Below, piece after piece: positions 15,781 to 31,834 of a stretch of 31,834 bases of DNA. The translations under genes and the position numbers were made by a program. The notes beneath the pieces were generated by a model that saw nothing but the letters and a program-made list of their open reading frames with translations, was not told the DNA's origin and ran no database searches. The first letter of the stretch is position 1. Each line of letters starts with the position of its first letter. This stretch comes from Deltaproteobacteria bacterium (lineage in GTDB: Bacteria; Desulfobacterota; GWC2-55-46; JAUVFY01), in contig JAUVFY010000001.1 in NCBI GenBank assembly GCA_030594025.1, forward strand, positions 1 to 31,834. Direction: 5' to 3'.

Positions 15781-15875
15781 ACCCCGTCATGAAAAATCCG
15801 GAAAACGAAGCTCGCCTTCCGACAGACTACGTTCGAGTTTCCAGCGGGAGCCCTTTTTTATGCGAAGGAGAACCT

Positions 15876-16259
15876 ATGGTAAAAAAAAGAAAAAAGACAA
15901 AGATACTCATCGTAGATGACGAAGAGTCAATAGGTCTTGCGCTGAGCGAGATGCTGAAGGACGAAGGTTTCGAGGCAGCTTACGTGATAGACGGGGCCCA
16001 GGCGGTCGAGGAGGTTGCGAACAACGGTTACAGACTCGTTTTTATGGATATGGTCATGCCCGGTATGAACGGCCTTGAGACTTACAGGGCCATAAGGAAG
16101 ATCAGCAGGTACGCAAAGGTAATACTTTTTACGGGATACATCAAGGACACCGACAATATAATCTCCCAGGGCGTAAGGGAGGGGATGATAGACGAGAAGA
16201 TAAGAAAACCCTATCTTACTGACCAGATAATAAGGAGCGCGAGGAAGCACCTGTCCTGA
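15876..16259 (+). CDS. Single-domain response regulator (receiver only)
   Basis: ILIVDDE, FMDMVMPGMNG (phosphoacceptor Asp), LFTG, RKP. AAGGAG RBS before ATG 15876. Confidence 0.9.
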   Translation: MVKKRKKTKILIVDDEESIGLALSEMLKDEGFEAAYVIDGAQAVEEVANNGYRLVFMDMVMPGMNGLETYRAIRKISRYAKVILFTGYIKDTDNIISQGVREGMIDEKIRKPYLTDQIIRSARKHLS

Positions 16260-19017: not shown

Positions 19018-20163
19018 ATGGGCCAAGTGTCAGAAGACCCTTGTATAGGTGAAGAACGGATGAAGGAAAAAGCACCAACCCCTATAGTTAAAAAGTCAAA
19101 GACCGCGGGCATCCGGTACGTCCTCTGGATATCCATCGTCTTATCGTTGGTCCTTGCGGGTGCGGTCGTCGCTTCCATGAGCTTTGTCTTCACCGGAAGC
19201 GTCGTTCCTAAGTACATGGCCGCCGGGGCCGTTACAGCCCTTTTGGTATCATCTGCGGTAGCCTTCATCGTTATCTTCCTTGCAAGGCGGATAAATGAGG
19301 ACCGCTACCATTCCATGCTCGAAGACTTGCCCGAACTCATTTGCCGCTGGACGCCTGACGGAACGATAACATACGTGAACGAAAGCTGCTCAAGGTACCT
19401 CGGCAAGACGAAAAAAGAGCTTGTCGGTCAAAGCATCGTGCAATTTATCCCTGAAAAAGAGCGTAAAAGGATGGAAAAACATCTCTATGCCCTTTTAAAG
19501 GAAAACCCCGTGGTTACCGTTGAACACAGGGTTACGCTGCCGGGAAGAGATACGAGGTGGCACCGCAGTACCGTAAGCGCAGCCTTCAACGAACAAGGGG
19601 ATTTGAAAGTATTCCAATCCGTCGGGCTGGATATTACCGAGCGCAAGCTTGCCGAACAGAACGTTAAGAAGTCGGAGGAAAGGTACAGAAATCTCATAAA
19701 CGAAATACACGACGGTTTCGCTGTCAGCGACCACAGGGGGAAGATCACCTTAGCCAACAAGGCCCTTGCCGGGATCCTCGGTTTTGAAACCCCGGAGGAG
19801 TTACTGGGAAAGAACTTGACGGACTTCTTCCACCCCACGACAAGAACGAAAGAGCTCGCGGAGTTCAAAAAGGCCTTTGAGACGGGAAGGTTCCCCGAGG
19901 TCGTTGTGAGCAAGGTTATAAGAAAAGACGGAGACACCGCTTTTGTTGAGGTCAGGCCAGTGCCTGTTATTGAGCAAGGCTCACTGGTGGGCTCAATGGG
20001 GGTTATAAGGGACGTGACCGAGCGAATCACGATGGAAGATGAAATAAAGCATAGACTTGACGAAGTCGAAAGGCTTAACAAGCTCATGGTGGGCAGGGAA
20101 CTGAAGATGGAGGGTTTCAGAAAGGAGATTGTGAGACTGAGGGAGAAATCCCGGAAAGAGTAG
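19018..20163 (+). CDS. Membrane-anchored tandem PAS-domain protein with no catalytic output domain
   Basis: Two TM helices, two PAS/PAC units ending DITERK and DVTER, and a short C-terminal coiled coil LNKLMVGRELKM. Confidence 0.8.
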   Translation: MGQVSEDPCIGEERMKEKAPTPIVKKSKTAGIRYVLWISIVLSLVLAGAVVASMSFVFTGSVVPKYMAAGAVTALLVSSAVAFIVIFLARRINEDRYHSMLEDLPELICRWTPDGTITYVNESCSRYLGKTKKELVGQSIVQFIPEKERKRMEKHLYALLKENPVVTVEHRVTLPGRDTRWHRSTVSAAFNEQGDLKVFQSVGLDITERKLAEQNVKKSEERYRNLINEIHDGFAVSDHRGKITLANKALAGILGFETPEELLGKNLTDFFHPTTRTKELAEFKKAFETGRFPEVVVSKVIRKDGDTAFVEVRPVPVIEQGSLVGSMGVIRDVTERITMEDEIKHRLDEVERLNKLMVGRELKMEGFRKEIVRLREKSRKE

Positions 20164-24417: not shown

Positions 24418-24515
24418 ACCACCGATAGTGGCAACCCACTCCGGAAGGATGGGACGCAAAGCCATTGACCCGACCCGGATTAGATGCGGAGGGTTTGATT
24501 GGATGCCGAAGTGGT
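24418..24515 (+). ncRNA. c-di-GMP-I (GEMM) riboswitch
   Basis: GGCAA-CC...CC-GGAA-GG...GGGACGCAAAGCC core, 3' GGATGCCGAA, and P1 ACCAC/GTGGT. G at 24430 is the G20-equivalent, so c-di-GMP rather than cGAMP type. Confidence 0.88.
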
Positions 24516-24526
24516 AAGAATAAGAC

Positions 24527-24562
24527 AACCCATCATAGGCTTTGCGGATGATGGGTTTTTTT
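24527..24562 (+). terminator. Intrinsic terminator (riboswitch expression platform)
   Basis: AACCCATCAT/ATGATGGGTT perfect 10-bp stem followed by a T run. Confidence 0.9.
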
Positions 24563-24595
24563 CTGGGGCGCTACAGTCATTATGAGAGAAGCGCC

Positions 24596-24624
24596 TTGAC
24601 AAAATAGATACCACGTGATATAAA
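24596..24624 (+). promoter_or_regulatory. sigma70 promoter between the riboswitch terminator and leader 1
   Basis: TTGACA (24596-24601), 17-nt spacer, TATAAA (24619-24624), extended -10 TG. Confidence 0.7.
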
Positions 24625-24627
24625 TCC

Positions 24628-24705
24628 GCTGTTTCAAGAAAAACAGCTTGTTATCACGCCGGGTGATGAAGCCCTAAGGCACATGTTTAGCCTTGGGGCT
24701 TTTTT
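24628..24705 (+). promoter_or_regulatory. Attenuator-like leader 1: two hexaloop hairpins plus an overlapping intrinsic terminator (ANTAR-target-like)
   Basis: GCTGTTT-CAAGAA-AAACAGC, GGGT-GATGAA-GCCC, and a 12-bp terminator stem 24669-24680/24690-24701 with a T run. Confidence 0.6.
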
Positions 24706-24881
24706 ATTTCAAGGATGTTTATAAAATAAACGGACTCCTGCGATTATGCGAAGGTAGCTGACGGCCCACATATAGAGGTGGTAAAATGAAAATCACCGCG
24801 GTCGTAGCGTTGCTTTCATTCGTTCCTCGAACACTTTCTAACCGCCCCTTTCCAGGGGGCCGAGGTAGAGGACTGCGCCCC

Positions 24882-25337
24882 GTGCATGGTAAAAAGCAGA
24901 GTTTTATATGGGGCTTGGTTCTTTTATTGTTCTTTTTCTTCCATTCATATGCATATGCCCAGGACTTCATCGTGGTCGTAAACAAGGACGGCCCCCTGAA
25001 CGATGCCAACATGGATGTAATAAAGAAGATATATCTCGGGGAGAAGAAGTTCGTGGACTCAACAAAGATCATGCCCATACATTTAAAAGAGGGCCCTGCC
25101 AAGGACGCCTTCCTCAAAACCGTTGTCGGTATGAGCTCAAAGGAATACAAGCATTACAGTCTACAGAAGCTCTTCCAGGAAGGGTTGCAATTCCACTCGA
25201 TAGCAATCCCCGTGGAAATCGTTGAGTTTGTGAGTAAAGAGAAAGGGGCGGTGGCCTATCTGCCGGCCTTCTGGACCACGGCCATTCAATCCGGGATCGG
25301 AAGAGGCACGGAGGAGATTAAGATTATTGGTCCCTGA
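24882..25337 (+). CDS. Small secreted periplasmic-binding-protein-like protein, copy 1 (often labelled 'phosphate ABC substrate-binding')
   Basis: Signal peptide ending AYA/QD, IVVVN..GPL, IYLGEK, EFVSKEKGAVAYLP. GTG 24882 has AGAGGA upstream. The frame also extends to ATG 24786. Confidence 0.75.
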   Translation: MHGKKQSFIWGLVLLLFFFFHSYAYAQDFIVVVNKDGPLNDANMDVIKKIYLGEKKFVDSTKIMPIHLKEGPAKDAFLKTVVGMSSKEYKHYSLQKLFQEGLQFHSIAIPVEIVEFVSKEKGAVAYLPAFWTTAIQSGIGRGTEEIKIIGP

Positions 25338-25438
25338 GGGCCGCGACACGGGCGAAGGGCTTTGGCCCGCGCGTTAGAGGAAGTTTGACGAACCCCCTCT
25401 CGATGGGCTTTCCCCTGCATTCTCTTCCATAAGCCTCC

Positions 25439-25467
25439 TTGACACCTTGCTTTTTCCGTGGTAGAAG
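25439..25467 (+). promoter_or_regulatory. Putative promoter of the porin operon
   Basis: TTGACA (25439-25444), 17-nt spacer, TAGAAG, extended TG. The -10 is weak. Confidence 0.4.
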
Positions 25468-25487
25468 TAGTAGAAGTAATAGAACTA
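25461..25487 (+). repeat. Three tandem 9-mers GTAGAAGTA GTAGAAGTA ATAGAACTA over the -10/start site
   Basis: Read directly from the sequence. Confidence 0.8.
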
Positions 25488-25516
25488 TTTGAAGATTTTT
25501 TAGGTAAGAAGATAAA

Positions 25517-25596
25517 ATGCTGTATGGGTATGCTCCTTTATGCAGCATAAGGTGAAGGTGCCTCAAGGCTGCGTTCTGCTCCTGGGGCATTTTTTT
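25517..25596 (+). promoter_or_regulatory. Attenuator-like leader 2, homologous to leader 1
   Basis: ATGCTGTAT...ATGCAGCAT hairpin, AGGT-GAAGGT-GCCT, and terminator TGCCTCAAGG/CCTGGGGCA followed by T7. Confidence 0.6.
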
Positions 25597-25665
25597 GTTT
25601 ATAAATATTCGGATTCAGGTATTTTTCTGCAGGCTGCAAACCGTATTTAGAAAGAGGTGAATGAC

Positions 25666-26931
25666 ATGAAAATCGCAAGGGTAGTTTTTTTGGTCTTCTT
25701 TTTCTTCCTCTTCACGGTGGTCCCGGACTCAGGGGCGGACGAGCTCTCGGACCTTAAAAAGGCGGTCGAGGAGCAGGAAAGAGAGCTTCAAGAGTTAAGG
25801 AAGAAGGTCGAAGAGCTGGAGAAGAAACGCCTTGAGGAAGAAGATGCTGAGAAGAAGATGGATGTAAGGGAACATGAAGAGCTCAAAAAAAAGGTCGAAG
25901 AGCTCGAGGAGAGAAGACGGCTCGAGGGGGAGGCGGCCAAGGAGATGAAGGAATTACTTCCCAAGTTCGGCGTGAACCTGGGCCTTTTCGGGGACATAAA
26001 TTATTCTTCTGAAAGCAGGGAGAAGAGAGTTGACACCTTTTCCCTGGGCAATGCAGCACTTTACTCTACCGCTGGCTACGGTGAGCGTTTGAACTTCCTC
26101 GCTGAGTTATTAATTGAGTTCGAGGAAGATAACGACGTGGAAGTCGACATGGAGAGGCTCTGGGCGGGCTACACAATAAACGATTTACTGATCATTCGCG
26201 CGGGCAAGTTCCACACGCCAGTAGGCTACTGGAACAAGACCTTCCATCACGGAAAACACCTCTTTCACACGGTGGAAAGGCCGTTTTTTATTAAATTCGA
26301 AGACGATGAAGGCATAGTTCCGGTACATTTAATAGGGCTTGAGTTCTCAGGGAGCGCCGACATCGGGCCGGCGAAGGCCAAATACTGGCTCATGGTGGGA
26401 AATGAACCTGTAATAGAGAACGGCAAGCTTAAGCCGAGCAATACAACCGACGACGACTCCTCCAAGGCGCTTGCTTTCAGGGTCGCGTTGAGCCCGAAGA
26501 GGCTGCCGGGTCTGTCCGTGGGCCTCTTTTTTACGCATTTCCCCGTGGAGACCACCCTCAAGCCCGGGCTCGACGAAAACATCTACGGGCTGGACGTGCA
26601 CTATGAGAGGGCCGGGCTGGAGTTCTTAGGCGAGTACTACTTCTTCGACAACAGCGTGGCCTCTGCAAACGCGTTCTACGCCCAGCTGTCTAAAGACTTA
26701 GGTCGATTTACACCGTATACGAGGTTCGAATGGCTCGACGTGGATAGTGACGACCCCTACATGAGCGACCTTAACGGCGCTTTCGACAGGTCGCAGTTCA
26801 TAGGCGGTTTGAGGTTCGATATAGATCTCCTGCACTCGAGCCTCAAGGCCCAGTACCGTCACGACGACGATAGAGGCCCTGCAGACGATGACTTCGACAT
26901 CTTCGAGGCCCAGTGGACATTTCATTTTTAA
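25666..26931 (+). CDS. Putative outer-membrane beta-barrel (porin) with an N-terminal coiled coil
   Basis: Signal peptide, charged heptad repeats, amphipathic strands, RAGKFHTPVGYWNKTFHHG, and a C-terminal aromatic beta-signal EAQWTFHF. GAGGT RBS before ATG 25666. Confidence 0.85.
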   Translation: MKIARVVFLVFFFFLFTVVPDSGADELSDLKKAVEEQERELQELRKKVEELEKKRLEEEDAEKKMDVREHEELKKKVEELEERRRLEGEAAKEMKELLPKFGVNLGLFGDINYSSESREKRVDTFSLGNAALYSTAGYGERLNFLAELLIEFEEDNDVEVDMERLWAGYTINDLLIIRAGKFHTPVGYWNKTFHHGKHLFHTVERPFFIKFEDDEGIVPVHLIGLEFSGSADIGPAKAKYWLMVGNEPVIENGKLKPSNTTDDDSSKALAFRVALSPKRLPGLSVGLFFTHFPVETTLKPGLDENIYGLDVHYERAGLEFLGEYYFFDNSVASANAFYAQLSKDLGRFTPYTRFEWLDVDSDDPYMSDLNGAFDRSQFIGGLRFDIDLLHSSLKAQYRHDDDRGPADDDFDIFEAQWTFHF

Positions 26932-26944
26932 ACTGGAGAATCTG

Positions 26945-27388
26945 ATGAGGCTTTTTCTTATTTTATTCTTCCTTTTTCTCCAGCCCTATGCATATGGAGC
27001 GGAAAAAGAAGGCCTAATCGTGATAGTAAACGAGAAAGGGCCTCTGACAGAGGCCAGCATGGAAGAAGTACGGGATGTCTATCTCGGTGAGAAGAGGTTT
27101 GTCGAAGGTACGAGGCTCCTGCCCGTTAACTTTACCGAGGGACCGCTAAAAGACCTTTTCCTTAAGAAGATCGTGGGTATGAGCTCGAAGGAATATAAGC
27201 ACCACTGGATTAGGAAGGTCTTCCAGGAGGGGCTCACCATCCCCACCACAATGGGGAGCCCCATTGCTATCATAGAGTTTGTTGTTAAGGAGAAAGGTGC
27301 GGTGGCCTATCTACCGGCTTCATGGGCAGAGGCCATCCTGTCCGGGATCGCAGATGTCACAGATAAGATTAAGATTATAGGGCCATGA
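26945..27388 (+). CDS. Small secreted periplasmic-binding-protein-like protein, copy 2
   Basis: GGAG RBS, signal peptide, and about 55-60% identity to copy 1 by hand alignment. Both end IKIIGP. Confidence 0.8.
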   Translation: MRLFLILFFLFLQPYAYGAEKEGLIVIVNEKGPLTEASMEEVRDVYLGEKRFVEGTRLLPVNFTEGPLKDLFLKKIVGMSSKEYKHHWIRKVFQEGLTIPTTMGSPIAIIEFVVKEKGAVAYLPASWAEAILSGIADVTDKIKIIGP

Positions 27389-28977
27389 AATTAAAGACAG
27401 GTATAAAAAGGAAGATTCTGGGCTCTTTCTTGGGCACCTTTATTGTATGGACGGTCATCATCTCCACGTTCATATTCTGGTCGTACTTTGTCATAGGGGG
27501 TCTCATCGGTACGGTGGGTGTGATGGACACCATCTCCCAGCAGGCGGAGGTAACGGGCGAGCTGAGGTTACAGCTTCAAAAGCTTCTTAAGACCTCCGGC
27601 GATTACCTTATAACAGGGGACATAGAAAAGAGGGACGAATTCGACACCATAGTCACGAGGATATCTATCCTTTTAAGCGCGCTTGAGGAGCTAACGAAAG
27701 AAGTGGAACAGGTCGTCGAAGAGCGGCGATACCCGCTTCAAAAAATCAGGGACGGGTCCATGAAATTAAGCTCCATGACAGTTGAGCTGATGTATCTCGA
27801 CGACCCGGTGGGCAACATTGAGGCTGCAAGGCTCATGGAGGAGGCCACGGCCTTCGGTGAAAGGGTTATAGTCGATGCCGAGGAGTTCCACAGCATAGCC
27901 GAAGTGGATAGAATTTTGATGATCGAGGAAACATCTCTTAGCATCTCCCGGACAAAGACCTTTCTTTACATACTCCCCCCGCTGGGGCTCTTTGCATTCA
28001 TCATGCTCTATCTTTACCTGCGGTATTACATAACAAATCCCCTTACCGAGTTTTACAAGGGTGCGGACAGGGTAGCAAAGGGGGACTTCGACCACTCCGT
28101 GGATGTAAAGACCGGGGACGAACTGGAGGGCCTGGCAGACGGGTTCAACAGGATGGCCTCGGCACTTAAGGAAAGGGAGGCGAAGCTTCTGAGTCTTCTC
28201 AAGGTGGCGGACAAGATTAACGAAGAGCTTATAGCCGCAAGCCAGCACAAGTCCTCCTTCCTCGCGAACATAAGCCATGAGCTCAAGACCCCCTTAACCC
28301 ATATATTGGGTTTTTCGGAACTCTTGAAGATGGAGGCGGGGGGCAAGCTCCCGGATACATACCGCAGGTACGCGGACTACATCTATAAGAGCGGAAAAGA
28401 CCTTTTGGAACTTATAAACTCAATGCTCGAGGTAACGCGCGCCTCCGGTGTTGCCGAACCCGAGTTGAAGAAGTTCCCTGTGAACAAGGCCATCGACGAA
28501 GTGGTGAAAAAGATAGGTTCCGATGCCGACAAGAAAAAGCTGGACTTTAAGGTGGAGGTCGACAAAGAACTGGGTCTTTTAAAGGCCGATAGAAATATGT
28601 TCAGCCAGATCCTCACGAGCCTGCTTTCCAACGCCATCAAGTTCACGCCCAAAGGAGGCTCCGTAAGGCTCGTGGTGTCGCAGACGGTTGAAGTCGAGGA
28701 GAGGGTCCTGAAGATGGTCGTCGAGGACACGGGCATAGGGATAAGACCGGAGGACAAGGAGACCGTCTTCGAATCCTTCGAGGTCGGGGACCTGACCCCT
28801 ACCAGGGAGTTCGGTGGACTCGGCATAGGGCTCGCCCTTACAAAGAGGTTCGTGGAGTTCCACGGCGGAAAGATAACCATCGAGAGCGAGTTGGGCAAGG
28901 GCTCCACCTTCGTTGTGCTCTTGCCCATAGGTAGAGTAGAGCCCGTAGGCCATGAGGAGGCTGAGAGTGAAAAATGA
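27385..28977 (+). CDS. Membrane sensor histidine kinase (periplasmic helical domain, HAMP, HisKA, HATPase)
   Basis: Two TM helices, HAMP (GDELEGLADGFNRM), H-box FLANISHELKTPL, N-box LLSNAIKFT, DTGIGI and GLGIGL G-boxes. Confidence 0.96.
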   Translation: MKLKTGIKRKILGSFLGTFIVWTVIISTFIFWSYFVIGGLIGTVGVMDTISQQAEVTGELRLQLQKLLKTSGDYLITGDIEKRDEFDTIVTRISILLSALEELTKEVEQVVEERRYPLQKIRDGSMKLSSMTVELMYLDDPVGNIEAARLMEEATAFGERVIVDAEEFHSIAEVDRILMIEETSLSISRTKTFLYILPPLGLFAFIMLYLYLRYYITNPLTEFYKGADRVAKGDFDHSVDVKTGDELEGLADGFNRMASALKEREAKLLSLLKVADKINEELIAASQHKSSFLANISHELKTPLTHILGFSELLKMEAGGKLPDTYRRYADYIYKSGKDLLELINSMLEVTRASGVAEPELKKFPVNKAIDEVVKKIGSDADKKKLDFKVEVDKELGLLKADRNMFSQILTSLLSNAIKFTPKGGSVRLVVSQTVEVEERVLKMVVEDTGIGIRPEDKETVFESFEVGDLTPTREFGGLGIGLALTKRFVEFHGGKITIESELGKGSTFVVLLPIGRVEPVGHEEAESEK

Positions 28978-30083
28978 AATTACAGTCAGGGTATAGGGGT
29001 ATTTTCGCCCTGACCGTTTTAGTCTTCTTTTCCGGAGCCGCACTTTCTTACGGAATCCCCTTCAAAAAAAGACAAACGACCTTTTATGTCACCACCCTGG
29101 CCGGCACGGGTGTGAAGGGCCATGAAAACGGAAGCCCCGACAGGGCGAGCTTCAACTGGCCTACAGGGGTGGCCGTTGCCCGCGACGGTACCGTATACGT
29201 GGCCGATTTTTCAAACAACGCCATAAGGAAGATCGACCCCGGCGGCAATGTTACGACTTTTGCAGGCTCCGGAAGGCAGGGACACAAGGACGGGAAGGGT
29301 ATAGATGCGCTATTCCACGGTCCCGATAACATGGCCATAGACCCGGAGGGCAACTTATTCGTCGCCGATGCGGACAACTTTAGGATTAGAAAGGTCACCC
29401 CCGACGGGACCGTTACCACGGTAGCCGGAAACGGTTCATTGGGTTACAGGGACGGATTGGCTCACGTTGCCATGTTCGGCTACCCCACGGGCATAGCCGT
29501 GGACATTGAAGGAAACCTCTATGTGGCAGACAGGCGGACCCATACGGTAAGAAAGATAACCACCGAGGGCATGGTCATGACTATCGCTGGAAACGGCCTG
29601 GCAGGCTACGCCGACGGAAAGGGCAAGGCCTCCCACCTGAGGGAGCCCATAAGCGTTTCCGTAAAGAGTGACGGTACGGTCTATGTCGCCGATTCGGGTA
29701 ACAACGTCATAAGGGAGATAGCCCCGGACGGTACCATAACGACACTTGCCGGGTCAAAACGTCCGGGTTACAAAGACGGTACCGGAAGGGATGCGCGGTT
29801 TAACTGGCCCACCGGCATAGCCGTAGACCCCTCCGGTAACATCTATGTCTGCGATTCGAATAACAACAAGATAAGGCGCATAACGCCGCTCGGTGTCGTG
29901 AGCACAATAGCCGGCGGGACGCTGCCCGGCTCAGCCAACGGCCCCGGCTGGCGCGCGAGCTTCAAATTCCCCACGGGCATATGGCTCGACGGGAAAGGAA
30001 ACATCTATGTCGCGGACTCGGGCAACAACATGATAAGAAAGATAACACGGCAAAGCTCGCTGGAGGCCCACTTAAGGGATTAA
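28974..30083 (+). CDS. Secreted NHL-repeat six-bladed beta-propeller protein
   Basis: N-terminal hydrophobic signal and six F..P.G.AVD..G.(L/I)YVAD..N..IRKI repeats. Confidence 0.9.
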   Translation: MKLQSGYRGIFALTVLVFFSGAALSYGIPFKKRQTTFYVTTLAGTGVKGHENGSPDRASFNWPTGVAVARDGTVYVADFSNNAIRKIDPGGNVTTFAGSGRQGHKDGKGIDALFHGPDNMAIDPEGNLFVADADNFRIRKVTPDGTVTTVAGNGSLGYRDGLAHVAMFGYPTGIAVDIEGNLYVADRRTHTVRKITTEGMVMTIAGNGLAGYADGKGKASHLREPISVSVKSDGTVYVADSGNNVIREIAPDGTITTLAGSKRPGYKDGTGRDARFNWPTGIAVDPSGNIYVCDSNNNKIRRITPLGVVSTIAGGTLPGSANGPGWRASFKFPTGIWLDGKGNIYVADSGNNMIRKITRQSSLEAHLRD

Positions 30084-30092
30084 CTGCAAGCC

Positions 30093-31834
30093 ATGGACAA
30101 AGCTCAGTTTTCCCTCAACCCGGAACAGCTCCAGGCGGTGGAATACACCGAAGGCCCGCTCCTTGTCGTGGCCGGTGCGGGCACGGGGAAGACCGCCGTG
30201 GTTACCCGCAGGATCGCACGCCTTATCGAACGGGGTGTGGCCCCCGAGCGGATACTGGCCCTTACCTTTACCGAGAAGGCCGCCTCTGAGATGGAAGAGA
30301 GGGTGGACAGGCTCGTTCCCTACGGGTACTCGAACGCCTGGATATCAACCTTCCATTCCTTCGGGGACAGGGTCTTGAGGGATAACGCGCTCAAGCTCGG
30401 CCTGGTCCCGGACTTCAAGGTCCTGACCGAGGCCGAATGCGTCATATTCTTAAAGGAACACCTTTTTGAGCTTCCCCTAAAGTACTTCAGGCCGGCCGGA
30501 GACCCCACCCGCTACCTCTCTGCCCTTGTAAAGTTCATAGCAAGGCTCAAGGACGAGGACGTCTCCCCGGGGGATTTTTTAAATTTTTGCGAGAGTCTAA
30601 AAAATACGGAAGGTGTGACCCCGGACTATATCCAGGAGCAGACAGAGCTCGCCCGGACATATGCCGCGTACCACGAACTCAAGCTCAGGCACGGGTACCT
30701 GGACTTCGGAGACCAGTGCTCACTGACGCTGAAACTCTTCCGCACAAAGCCCGCCATATTAAACCGCTACCAGGAAAAGTTCCTCTACATACTCGCCGAC
30801 GAGTTCCAGGACACAAACTACTCCCAGTTCGAGCTCCTTAAGCTTCTGGCCGGCGAGAGAAAAAACATAACCGTCGTTGCCGACGACGACCAGAGTATTT
30901 ACAAGTTCCGCGGCGCGGCGATAAGTAACGTCCTTGGCTTCATGGACGTCTACCCTGAGGCCAAACGTATAACGCTCACTAGGAACTACAGGTCCGTTCA
31001 GCCCATACTCGACAGCGCCTACAGGTTGATTGCCCACAACAACCCCGACAGGCTCGAGGTCAAAAACGGGATAGATAAAAGGCTCGCCTCGGTGAGGAAG
31101 GCAGGCGACGGTGGTGGCGTAAGGCACTTACACTTCGACACCCTCACGAAGGAGGCGGAGTTCGTGGCCAGGACCATAAAAGAGAGGGTCGAGGGCGGGG
31201 TACCGTTGAGGGACTTTGCCGTACTGGTAAGGGCAAATAACGACGCGGTGCCTTTCTTGAGGGCCCTTTGTGAGAAGGCCATAGCACACCGTTTTTCCGG
31301 CTCGAGCGGCCTGTACTCGACCGACGAGATAAGACTCCTCATAAGTTTCCTGAAGGTCATAACCGACCATACGGACAACTTGAGCCTGTTTCACCTCGCA
31401 AGCTCCCCCGTTTACGGCCTCACGGCAAAAGACATAGTGCCCTTGAATAACATCTCAAAGAGGACCCATACCTCGCTTCATAAAATTATGAGGGATGCGG
31501 CAGCGGGAAAAGACGTCAGGGCCGAACTTTCTCAAGAGGGTCTTGAAAGGATAAAGAGGCTCACAGAAGACATAGACCGCTTGAGCGAGATGGCGCTAAA
31601 AGAGGCCACCGGAAGGGTCCTCTATTCCTTCCTGACCGAGACCGGCTATATCTCAAGGCTCTCAGAGGCCGGCTCCGAAGAGAGTGTGGATAGGATCCGA
31701 AACATCGCGAGGTTCTTTGAAATCACAACCCACATCGAGAACACCCTTTCCATAAGGAAGGTCTACGCCCTCGTCGAGCACCTCACACTTCTCATGGAGG
31801 CAGGTGACGACCCGGCGACCGTAGAGACAGACCC
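30093..31834 (+). CDS. UvrD/PcrA/Rep superfamily 1A DNA helicase, 3'-truncated by the window end
   Basis: Missing from the ORF track because there is no stop. Hand translation: LNPEQLQAV, VVAGAGTGKT, LTFTEKAASEM, TFHSF, ADEFQDTN, DDDQSIYKFRGA, RNYRS. Confidence 0.93.
   Translation, partial: MDKAQFSLNPEQLQAVEYTEGPLLVVAGAGTGKTAVVTRRIARLIERGVAPERILALTFTEKAASEMEERVDRLVPYGYSNAWISTFHSFGDRVLRDNALKLGLVPDFKVLTEAECVIFLKEHLFELPLKYFRPAGDPTRYLSALVKFIARLKDEDVSPGDFLNFCESLKNTEGVTPDYIQEQTELARTYAAYHELKLRHGYLDFGDQCSLTLKLFRTKPAILNRYQEKFLYILADEFQDTNYSQFELLKLLAGERKNITVVADDDQSIYKFRGAAISNVLGFMDVYPEAKRITLTRNYRSVQPILDSAYRLIAHNNPDRLEVKNGIDKRLASVRKAGDGGGVRHLHFDTLTKEAEFVARTIKERVEGGVPLRDFAVLVRANNDAVPFLRALCEKAIAHRFSGSSGLYSTDEIRLLISFLKVITDHTDNLSLFHLASSPVYGLTAKDIVPLNNISKRTHTSLHKIMRDAAAGKDVRAELSQEGLERIKRLTEDIDRLSEMALKEATGRVLYSFLTETGYISRLSEAGSEESVDRIRNIARFFEITTHIENTLSIRKVYALVEHLTLLMEAGDDPATVETD

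Follow-up and report, generated by a model that had tools for sequence, protein, structure and literature searches.

Gene content of the locus

We analyzed a 31,834-nt stretch of DNA (the window; contig JAUVFY010000001.1 of assembly GCA_030594025.1) from an uncultured sediment bacterium assigned to the Deltaproteobacteria, in which positions 24418-30083 carry five genes that encode, in order, a small secreted protein resembling the phosphate-binding protein PstS (PBP1), an outer-membrane barrel (the porin), a second small PstS-like protein (PBP2), a sensor histidine kinase, and an NHL-repeat beta-propeller protein (Table 1). On balance, we favor the interpretation that three of these components, the porin, a single-lobe 'half-PstS' small protein, and the membrane kinase, constitute a three-part envelope co-sensor cassette. 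The open reading frame (ORF) listing and the translations place all five genes on the + strand, at the positions and in the order given by the original prediction, a reading of the sequence by a model that had proposed a relay from barrel to periplasmic adaptor to kinase. The two ATGA overlaps that it described are present at the PBP2/kinase (27385) and kinase/NHL (28974) junctions, and the gap between the porin stop codon (TAA, 26929-26931) and the PBP2 ATG (26945), which had been counted as 14 nt, is 13 nt and contains GGAG.

Table 1. Genes and candidate control elements at the locus, in order of position (c-di-GMP, cyclic di-GMP; TM, transmembrane segment; aa, amino acids).
Feature	Positions	Strand	Remarks
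Candidate c-di-GMP-I aptamer (RF01051)	24420-24510	+	34.3 bits (gathering threshold 35); full model, 1-87
Putative riboswitch terminator	24527-24562	+	AACCCATCAT...ATGATGGG followed by T7; from sequence and folds
Promoter-like element P2	24596-24624	+	TTGACA, 17 nt, TGaTATAAA; read from sequence
Leader 1	24628-24705	+	Hairpin; GGGUGAUGA box, 24661-24669; terminator, 24670-24705; from alignment A7 and folds
PBP1	24882-25337	+	GTG start (most likely); secreted single-lobe PstS-like protein, PBP2 paralog; family profile match E 2.1e-37
Promoter-like element P3	25439-25467	+	TTGACA, 17 nt, TGgTAGAAG; after PBP1; from alignment A6
Leader 2	25517-25596	+	Long hairpin, 25517-25548; AAGGUGAAGG box, 25549-25558; terminator, 25559-25596; from alignment A6 and RNAalifold
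Outer-membrane barrel ('porin')	25666-26931	+	ATG start (most likely); listed ORF opens at GTG 25657
PBP2	26945-27388	+	Secreted single-lobe PstS-like protein; mature protein ~129 aa
Sensor histidine kinase	27385-28977	+	TM1, periplasmic 45-190, TM2, HAMP, HisKA, HATPase_c; from Pfam, alignment, and hydropathy
NHL-repeat beta-propeller protein	28974-30083	+	Secreted or anchored; NHL E 9.5e-44

Two start codons call for comment. The porin most likely starts at ATG 25666 rather than at GTG 25657, because its homologs begin MKIARV... and GAGGTG is located 6 nt upstream of the ATG. PBP1 most likely starts at GTG 24882, because this start yields a clean signal peptide, because the codon is TTG in relatives L049 and L053, and because an N-terminal extension is absent from relatives L006 and L054; an in-frame ATG at 24786 with a strong Shine-Dalgarno sequence (GAGGTG) is an alternative start. 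The 32-codon stretch that this ATG opens (24786-24881), in frame with PBP1, is present in the closest relatives, L049 and L053, and is absent in L006 and L054. It may be a leader ORF or may extend the N terminus.

The small proteins resemble lobe II of PstS

PBP1 and PBP2 are paralogs (56% identity, E 1e-52), as had been supposed of the protein just upstream of the porin, and they are the only two copies of their family in the whole genome. Neither matches a Pfam or NCBIfam family above cut-off in scans against both collections. An exhaustive profile search at E<=1e-3 retrieves 5982 cluster representatives of the family, nearly all of them 130-160 aa long, and 17 of 44 diverse family relatives match PBP_like_2 (PF12849), the best at E 5.9e-9. 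The AlphaFold2 model of PBP2 (predicted local distance difference test score, pLDDT, 87) finds PstS proteins as its best Foldseek matches in the PDB, with TM scores of 0.58 by query and 0.34 by target, which correspond to coverage of the whole query and of about a third of the target. The family profile aligns with PstS residues ~79-184, that is, lobe II (E 2.2e-9). Profile alignment and structure model together indicate that PBP1 and PBP2 represent lobe II alone of a PstS-type binding protein; a two-lobe Venus-flytrap fold of ~250-320 residues is not found, since mature PBP2 has ~129 residues and comprises lobe II only.

Alignment to PstS (phosphate-bound 4GD5, and 4Q8R) shows that the small proteins have not kept the anion-binding S-G-T loop of lobe II: PstS 'DGSGTRDAF' aligns with 'kEG.eikkaF' in the family and with TEGPLKDLF in the small protein of the window, so that SGT is replaced by EG(P). 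The motifs IYLG and GAxxY are common to the small family and PstS, and the stretch YKxxWxKKVFQEG (YKHHWIRKVFQEG) is without counterpart in PstS and represents a family-specific inserted helix. The small proteins thus share with PstS and PBP_like_2 the homology of lobe II, and differ from them in size, in the missing lobe I, in the lost loop, in lacking a pstCAB neighbor, and in falling below the Pfam threshold. An identity with YfiR (DUF4154) was considered and rejected: there is no Pfam/DUF4154 match, and no YfiR chain is among the 50 Foldseek PDB matches listed.

The original prediction had noted that the operon lacks a transporter and had regarded a transport role as unlikely, and both statements hold. 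No ABC (ATP-binding cassette) permease or ATPase is encoded within 24418-30083. Some 10 kb upstream, the opposite strand encodes an Opp-type ABC system that includes an SBP_bac_5 protein of its own. A full-length PBP_like_2 gene (pstS) adjoins pstC and pstA on another contig of the genome (C207). Because the small proteins have a single lobe and have lost the anion loop, because pstS-pstC-pstA is found separately, and because both small copies are located here, a role in ABC import is unlikely. We regard as very improbable the explanation that the small proteins serve a remote importer, for example Pst, or that the genes stay together by inherited synteny and have no functional connection. The importer form of this explanation draws on the name 'phosphate ABC transporter substrate-binding protein' that the Prokaryotic Genome Annotation Pipeline (PGAP) gives to proteobacterial homologs, and has against it the half-size protein, the lost loop, and the placement of the genome's own pstS. 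The same label appears in RefSeq on proteobacterial homologs of 135-145 aa (L056, 5935-6342; L057, 5932-6339; L058, 5920-6357), for which it is probably misleading.

Porin, small protein, and membrane transducer recur as neighbors

Close relatives from metagenomes keep the full neighborhood, comprising genes for dodecin, an ADP-forming acyl-CoA synthetase, and an aminotransferase, the cassette, and a helicase gene. The strength of this synteny with the synthetase, aminotransferase, and helicase genes would suit the view that the gene order is simply inherited. Since synteny in close kin proves little, a wider survey of the phylum was made, in which 46 of 401 genomes contained the small family at E<=1e-8; in 40 regions ORFs were called and scored with profiles of our own, yielding 38 non-redundant loci. 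A porin-family gene is present within two genes of the small gene at 25 of the 38 loci, mostly directly upstream, a membrane transducer is present within two genes at 28 (~6% expected), and both are present within two genes at 22. Of 274 background ORFs from these loci that lie more than three genes away, transducers make up 1.5%, and porin-family genes are absent.

The upstream genes match Porin_4, Porin_O_P, and BBP2 in Pfam. The downstream genes (n=30) match HAMP (17), HisKA with HATPase (10), MCPsignal (7), GGDEF (3), and EAL (1), and most of the partner transducers have a loop of 129-183 aa between two TM segments. Annotated chromid or plasmid records extend the pattern to Pseudoalteromonas, where a porin gene and a gene for a methyl-accepting chemotaxis protein accompany that of a 135-aa protein named 'phosphate ABC transporter substrate-binding protein', and to Burkholderia, with a barrel, a small protein, and an EAL protein; the barrels of both match our porin profile. 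The results establish that the small protein and a transducer share a conserved neighborhood. The original prediction had proposed a survey of the neighborhoods of the porin family as a check, and had mentioned porin, small binding-protein-like, and sensor trios in other bacteria. This is borne out: the trio recurs far beyond syntenic relatives and is present also in Gamma- and Betaproteobacteria. That it is found in other phyla and in genomic settings that are unrelated argues against inherited synteny. No published description of the cassette was found in the literature covered, which did not include subscription journals, and the unit of porin, half-PstS, and sensor is apparently widespread but undescribed.

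The survey also revealed variant arrangements. REC-HD-GYP, kinase, porin, and small genes form an operon in L029 (7998-12963), L031 (7995-12554), L032 (3801-8435), and L042 (7551-12620), with a single-domain REC gene also in L029 and L042; L032 is from a metagenome contig, and the other three are from genomes of the same order. These operons link the cassette to c-di-GMP breakdown. Other relatives attach a HAMP-GAF-GGDEF protein, a REC-GGDEF (REC-PAS-GGDEF) protein, or a sigma-54 regulator to the cassette. In L009 (4146-9439), a kinase gene precedes one porin-small pair and a HAMP-GAF-GGDEF cyclase gene follows it, and both transducers have the same RD.[FY]D sensor domain. In L025 (G093:C5), an independent tandem expansion has the order porin, porin, small, porin, small, chemoreceptor.

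The NHL protein, an NHL-repeat propeller with an N-terminal hydrophobic segment, had been proposed as a core part of the system. Its gene is present in 2 of the 38 surveyed loci (L004 and L011) and otherwise in further close kin only (L051, L052, L054, and L055), and is absent from the other 36 surveyed loci and from L001 and L012. We conclude that it is a lineage-specific addition outside the conserved unit.

Beyond the NHL gene, a UvrD/AddA-type helicase gene (30093-31832) begins 9 nt past the NHL stop codon (30083) and runs off the window end. There is no terminator between the two genes, the helicase gene trails the cassette in many relatives, and in relatives the helicase ends in a PDDEXK nuclease domain. 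The helicase gene may be co-transcribed with the cassette.

The porin is predicted to carry a periplasmic helical stalk

The AlphaFold2 model of the porin (pLDDT 86.9) comprises a signal peptide, a 68-residue helix (residues 33-100), and a barrel of 16 main strands with an inward-folded loop (187-223) that contains short helices; the helix is likely to be a coiled-coil stalk. The top Foldseek matches are OmpU/OmpT, OmpM1, OmpF/C, OprP, and DcaP, trimeric porins among them, with E values down to 1.7e-12. The barrel of the window itself matches no Pfam porin family above cut-off; its homologs match Porin_4, Porin_O_P, and BBP2, including L005 (Porin_4, 34.6 bits) and P0222 (PF07396). The closest structural parallel is provided by DcaP, ScrY, and OmpM1, which likewise place a 16-strand porin-type barrel behind a long N-terminal helix. 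DcaP of Acinetobacter baumannii is a solved 16-strand trimer with a modeled N-terminal coiled coil of ~100 A (bioRxiv 10.1101/306035). In contrast to these proteins, the barrel of the window has no detectable sequence-family membership, and DcaP is not reported with a half-binding-protein or sensor partner.

Charged helical N-terminal segments of 25-75 residues are common among relatives in the same phylum. Because the porins of Pseudoalteromonas, Alteromonas, and Burkholderia have no coiled-coil stalk, a physical bridge formed by the stalk cannot be general, and the candidacy of the stalk as a general connector is weakened accordingly.

The stalk bears on an alternative in which the locus encodes an envelope-stress relay comparable to YfiBNR or RcsF and independent of any diffusible ligand. 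In it the small protein would inhibit or activate the kinase from the periplasm and would be captured or released by the outer-membrane protein upon envelope perturbation. A single binding-protein lobe cannot close on a ligand, the helix of the window porin is predicted to extend ~10 nm toward the inner membrane side of the periplasm, c-di-GMP enzymes, of which YfiN is one, are frequent outputs, and the three-compartment layout is like that of YfiB/YfiR/YfiN. We nevertheless consider this alternative quite improbable: neither the sequence nor the best fold matches point to YfiR, PstS being the top Foldseek match; in place of a lipoprotein, the outer-membrane partner is a porin that forms a channel and has a constriction-type loop; the proteobacterial members have no stalk; and many partners are chemoreceptors, which usually track solutes.

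A small protein is predicted to dock on the kinase

The kinase matches HisKA (E 7.4e-20), HATPase_c (E 7.1e-24), and HAMP (E 2e-12). Its periplasmic domain of ~150 aa (45-190) contains the motif DYLITGD..RDEFD, and Y74, R83, D87, and G143 are invariant in alignment A9. To assess the adaptor-to-kinase step of the original prediction we modeled a complex of two copies of kinase residues 44-192 and two copies of mature PBP2, each with its own alignment. The 2:2 prediction gives an ipSAE (interaction prediction score from aligned errors) of 0.69 (runs 0.68, 0.69, and 0.71), as compared with 0.01 for the best control. The ipSAE mark is reached by 58 of 80 solved complexes and by 2 of 110 mismatched pairs, figures that are a rough guide for the present case, with its own alignments and 2:2 composition. 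In the model, the kinase side of the interface comprises residues 80-98, including the conserved RDEFD helix with the invariant R83 and D87, and residues 122-137; the small-protein side comprises the former SGT loop (64-66; T64-G66) and the inserted helix (81-102). The prediction thus gives in-silico support to the step from adaptor to kinase, and we infer that the small protein docks on the periplasmic domain of the kinase.

Several observations weigh against the co-sensor interpretation. In the survey, a transducer within two genes is missing from 10 of the 38 loci. At a distant locus, L005, a porin and a small gene are present with no transducer nearby and with a P-type ATPase gene downstream. 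The kinase sensor domain falls into no clear family: CHASE3 and 4HB_MCP_1 are each matched by 1 of 15 relatives, below cut-off, and we accordingly rejected assignment to CHASE3. Among close kin, conserved residues are only weakly enriched at the predicted interface (small protein, p 0.03; kinase, p 0.10), and the broad family alignment shows no such enrichment. The helix motif of the small protein is kept family-wide, Proteobacteria included, even where the sensor has no RDEFD; RDEFD was rejected as a family-wide partner mark, being confined to the nearest sensor subfamily. The lack of a stalk in proteobacterial porins, described above, is a further point, as is the record of the source organism, which comes only from cold-seep and marine-sediment metagenomes, the runs listed being of DNA type only (from a search that was not RNA-specific).

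Since the hallmark helix is kept without an RDEFD partner, it might bind the common partner, the porin, and its surface might serve the porin rather than the sensor. This possibility leads to an alternative centered on the porin, in which the small protein would cooperate with the porin, acting in the periplasm on a specific solute as a substrate sink, a plug, or a gate, and the neighboring transducers would sense this solute independently or only share regulation, with no relay via the small protein. Adjacency of porin and small genes is the tightest link in the survey, being immediate in most loci and holding in L005 without a transducer, the hallmark helix is conserved across different sensor families, L025 contains a tandem porin-small array, and a stabilizing or substrate-sink role has been discussed for the periplasmic extensions at the N termini of DcaP and ScrY (bioRxiv 10.1101/306035). 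Set against these points are the complex prediction, in which the small protein sits on the kinase sensor and the score far exceeds those of controls, the excess of transducers within two genes over expectation, and the prevalence among these transducers of a single topology, with a periplasmic loop of ~150 aa, which is hard to explain without a direct tie. We judge the porin-centered alternative unlikely.

Possible partners of the kinase

As the original prediction had stated, the kinase has no neighboring regulator: no receiver gene is present within 24418-31834, and the nearest is at 15789-16259, ~9 kb upstream. This gene encodes a single-domain receiver, keeps its position in relative L001, and is a possible partner of the orphan kinase. 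Elsewhere in the genome, contig C126 has REC and HD-GYP matches on the same strand, and contig C188 encodes one REC-ANTAR protein. With 31 receiver, 10 GGDEF, and 4 HD-GYP matches in 1.54 Mb (98% completeness), the genome is signaling-rich for its small size. At 19018-20163 the window also encodes a 381-aa protein with two PAS domains and no recognizable output domain.

Stacked candidate RNA control elements precede the genes

Three terminator-type hairpins with T-runs are located in series upstream of PBP1 and between PBP1 and the porin (Table 1). The first follows a probable c-di-GMP-I riboswitch aptamer, which is the sole RF01051 match in the genome (E 2.5e-4 in a 2.8-kb search and 3.4e-5 in the whole genome). 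The match is full-length, the conserved GGCAA..GGGACGCAAAGCC core is intact, and the downstream terminator could serve as expression platform, features that the element shares with known GEMM-I riboswitches. At 24430 the sequence has a G where the c-di-GMP-I model has an unpaired G ahead of its first helix. In GEMM-I riboswitches that unpaired G goes with c-di-GMP rather than cyclic GMP-AMP. In folds of growing transcripts the aptamer GAUGGG pairs with the terminator CCCAUC before the 3' arm has been made, and the ability of the terminator 5' arm to pair in this way suggests an OFF switch. A connection to c-di-GMP is also indicated by the GGDEF and HD-GYP matches in the genome and by the relatives that wire the cassette to GGDEF or HD-GYP proteins.

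The assignment of the aptamer has points against it. Rfam reported nothing at the gathering threshold, and the element was seen by E value only, 0.7 bit short; the second helix contains several non-canonical pairs; and a promoter-like element intervenes before the genes, unlike in the standard arrangement. The only other copies, in L049 and L050, are identical in sequence and therefore give no covariation support. L052 and L053 begin inside the riboswitch terminator, with letters of the stem changed, L006 has no RF01051 match, and in L054, where the terminator was judged by alignment only, the terminator is absent. Clear c-di-GMP-I riboswitches occur in relatives G192 and G023 (57-68 bits), on contigs other than those of the cassette, so that no association of riboswitch and cassette was found there. 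Weak Rfam matches to DUF3800-I, TEG147, NsiR1, and IRES_Bip were dropped as hairpin or terminator look-alikes.

The original prediction had held that expression must pass the riboswitch. The conserved promoter-like elements P2, downstream of the riboswitch terminator, and P3, downstream of PBP1, speak against this: the control elements are stacked, but P2 and P3 could bypass the riboswitch. The P2 -35 hexamer is kept in L053 and L054, and its -10 element also in L006; the P3 TTGACA is invariant in all six loci of alignment A6. (A consensus promoter scan missed both elements, since its rule requires T as the last -10 base.) Each promoter-like element is followed by a leader, and in both leaders a conserved single-stranded RGGUGAWG box is located just 5' of the terminator. 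The terminator arms, GCCYCAAGG and CCUUGGGGC, vary with compensation, for leader 1 in L006, L052, and L054.

A feedback loop had also been suggested, in which the kinase would phosphorylate an ANTAR-type regulator that opens these leaders. ANTAR targets have tandem dual hexaloop hairpins with A1 and G4 in the loops, the second hairpin competing with a terminator (PMC3369931). Leader 1 has the loops CAAGAA and GCCGG, leader 2 has a 14-nt loop, loops of the upstream hairpins measure 5, 6, 8, or 14 nt, and hairpin shape is not kept in L006, L052, and L054. With no conserved dual hexaloops carrying A1 and G4, we rejected the ANTAR reading of the leaders, and the feedback loop is unsupported, though the genome has a REC-ANTAR gene.

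Discussion

According to the co-sensor interpretation, a dedicated 16-strand porin of the trimeric type would pass a signal across the outer membrane or report the state of that membrane, and in the window would carry a periplasmic helical stalk ~10 nm long. The secreted lobe II protein, with its anion loop lost and a helix gained, would be an accessory co-sensor rather than a transport receptor and would dock on the ~150-residue periplasmic domain of the kinase. The kinase, of 2TM-HAMP-HisKA architecture, would in turn phosphorylate a receiver encoded elsewhere. A second small protein with its own putative promoter and leader, the NHL propeller, and the upstream candidate c-di-GMP-I riboswitch would be extras of the lineage, with the riboswitch probably ending read-through transcription at high c-di-GMP. 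The scheme builds on the gene order, the folds, the homology, the conserved neighborhood, and the RNA elements described above; the direction of signaling, any porin contact, the ligand, the logic of the riboswitch, and the docking are what we infer. Of the original prediction, the step from adaptor to kinase has in-silico support, and the NHL protein as a core part, the ANTAR loop, and obligatory passage of the riboswitch are not supported.

Because the model lays the former SGT loop, that is, the former cleft face, and the inserted helix against the sensor, we tentatively raise a more specific idea, which we think unlikely: that half-PstS and helical sensor domain form a composite receptor in which the sensor replaces the missing lobe and the porin feeds or touches the site, a general undescribed input device that kinases, chemoreceptors, and c-di-GMP enzymes would have in common across phyla. 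In the window, the small protein and the bundle of the sensor might then, together with the 10-nm stalk, reach across almost the whole periplasm.

Input signals are obscure for most bacterial kinases, chemoreceptors, and c-di-GMP enzymes. The cassette marks a large class of such receptors, which seem to depend on two accessory genes annotated as 'hypothetical', 'porin', or 'phosphate ABC transporter substrate-binding protein'. Should the docking prove true, it would offer a testable route to ligands, correct the last of these annotations, and extend the known modes of binding-protein input to receptors by one that uses a single lobe. The riboswitch, the two matched leaders, and the duplicated small protein are local additions that would connect the unit with c-di-GMP in this uncultured bacterium.

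Comparison with known systems

YfiBNR and RcsF-OMP-IgaA consist of one component in the outer membrane, a small partner in the periplasm, and a signaling protein in the inner membrane, and are often tied to c-di-GMP. The cassette has the same three-compartment logic; however, its proteins are unrelated to those of these systems, and its outer-membrane part is a diffusion-type porin, not a lipoprotein.

The binding-protein-dependent receptors TorT-TorS, LuxP-LuxQ, PstS-CtpL, and GlnH-GlnX (PMC8050422; for GlnH/GlnX, PMC9769921) resemble the cassette in that a secreted protein of binding-protein fold is encoded beside a transducer, on which docking is in our case predicted, and in that outputs include kinases, chemoreceptors, and c-di-GMP enzymes. 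The cassette differs from them in having a dedicated porin gene, and in its binding protein: theirs have two lobes and close on a ligand, whereas that of the cassette is lobe II only, with a new helix. Particular to the window are the duplication of the small protein, with a leader of its own, the NHL gene, the candidate riboswitch, and an interface that maps, in the model, to the former SGT loop and the inserted helix.

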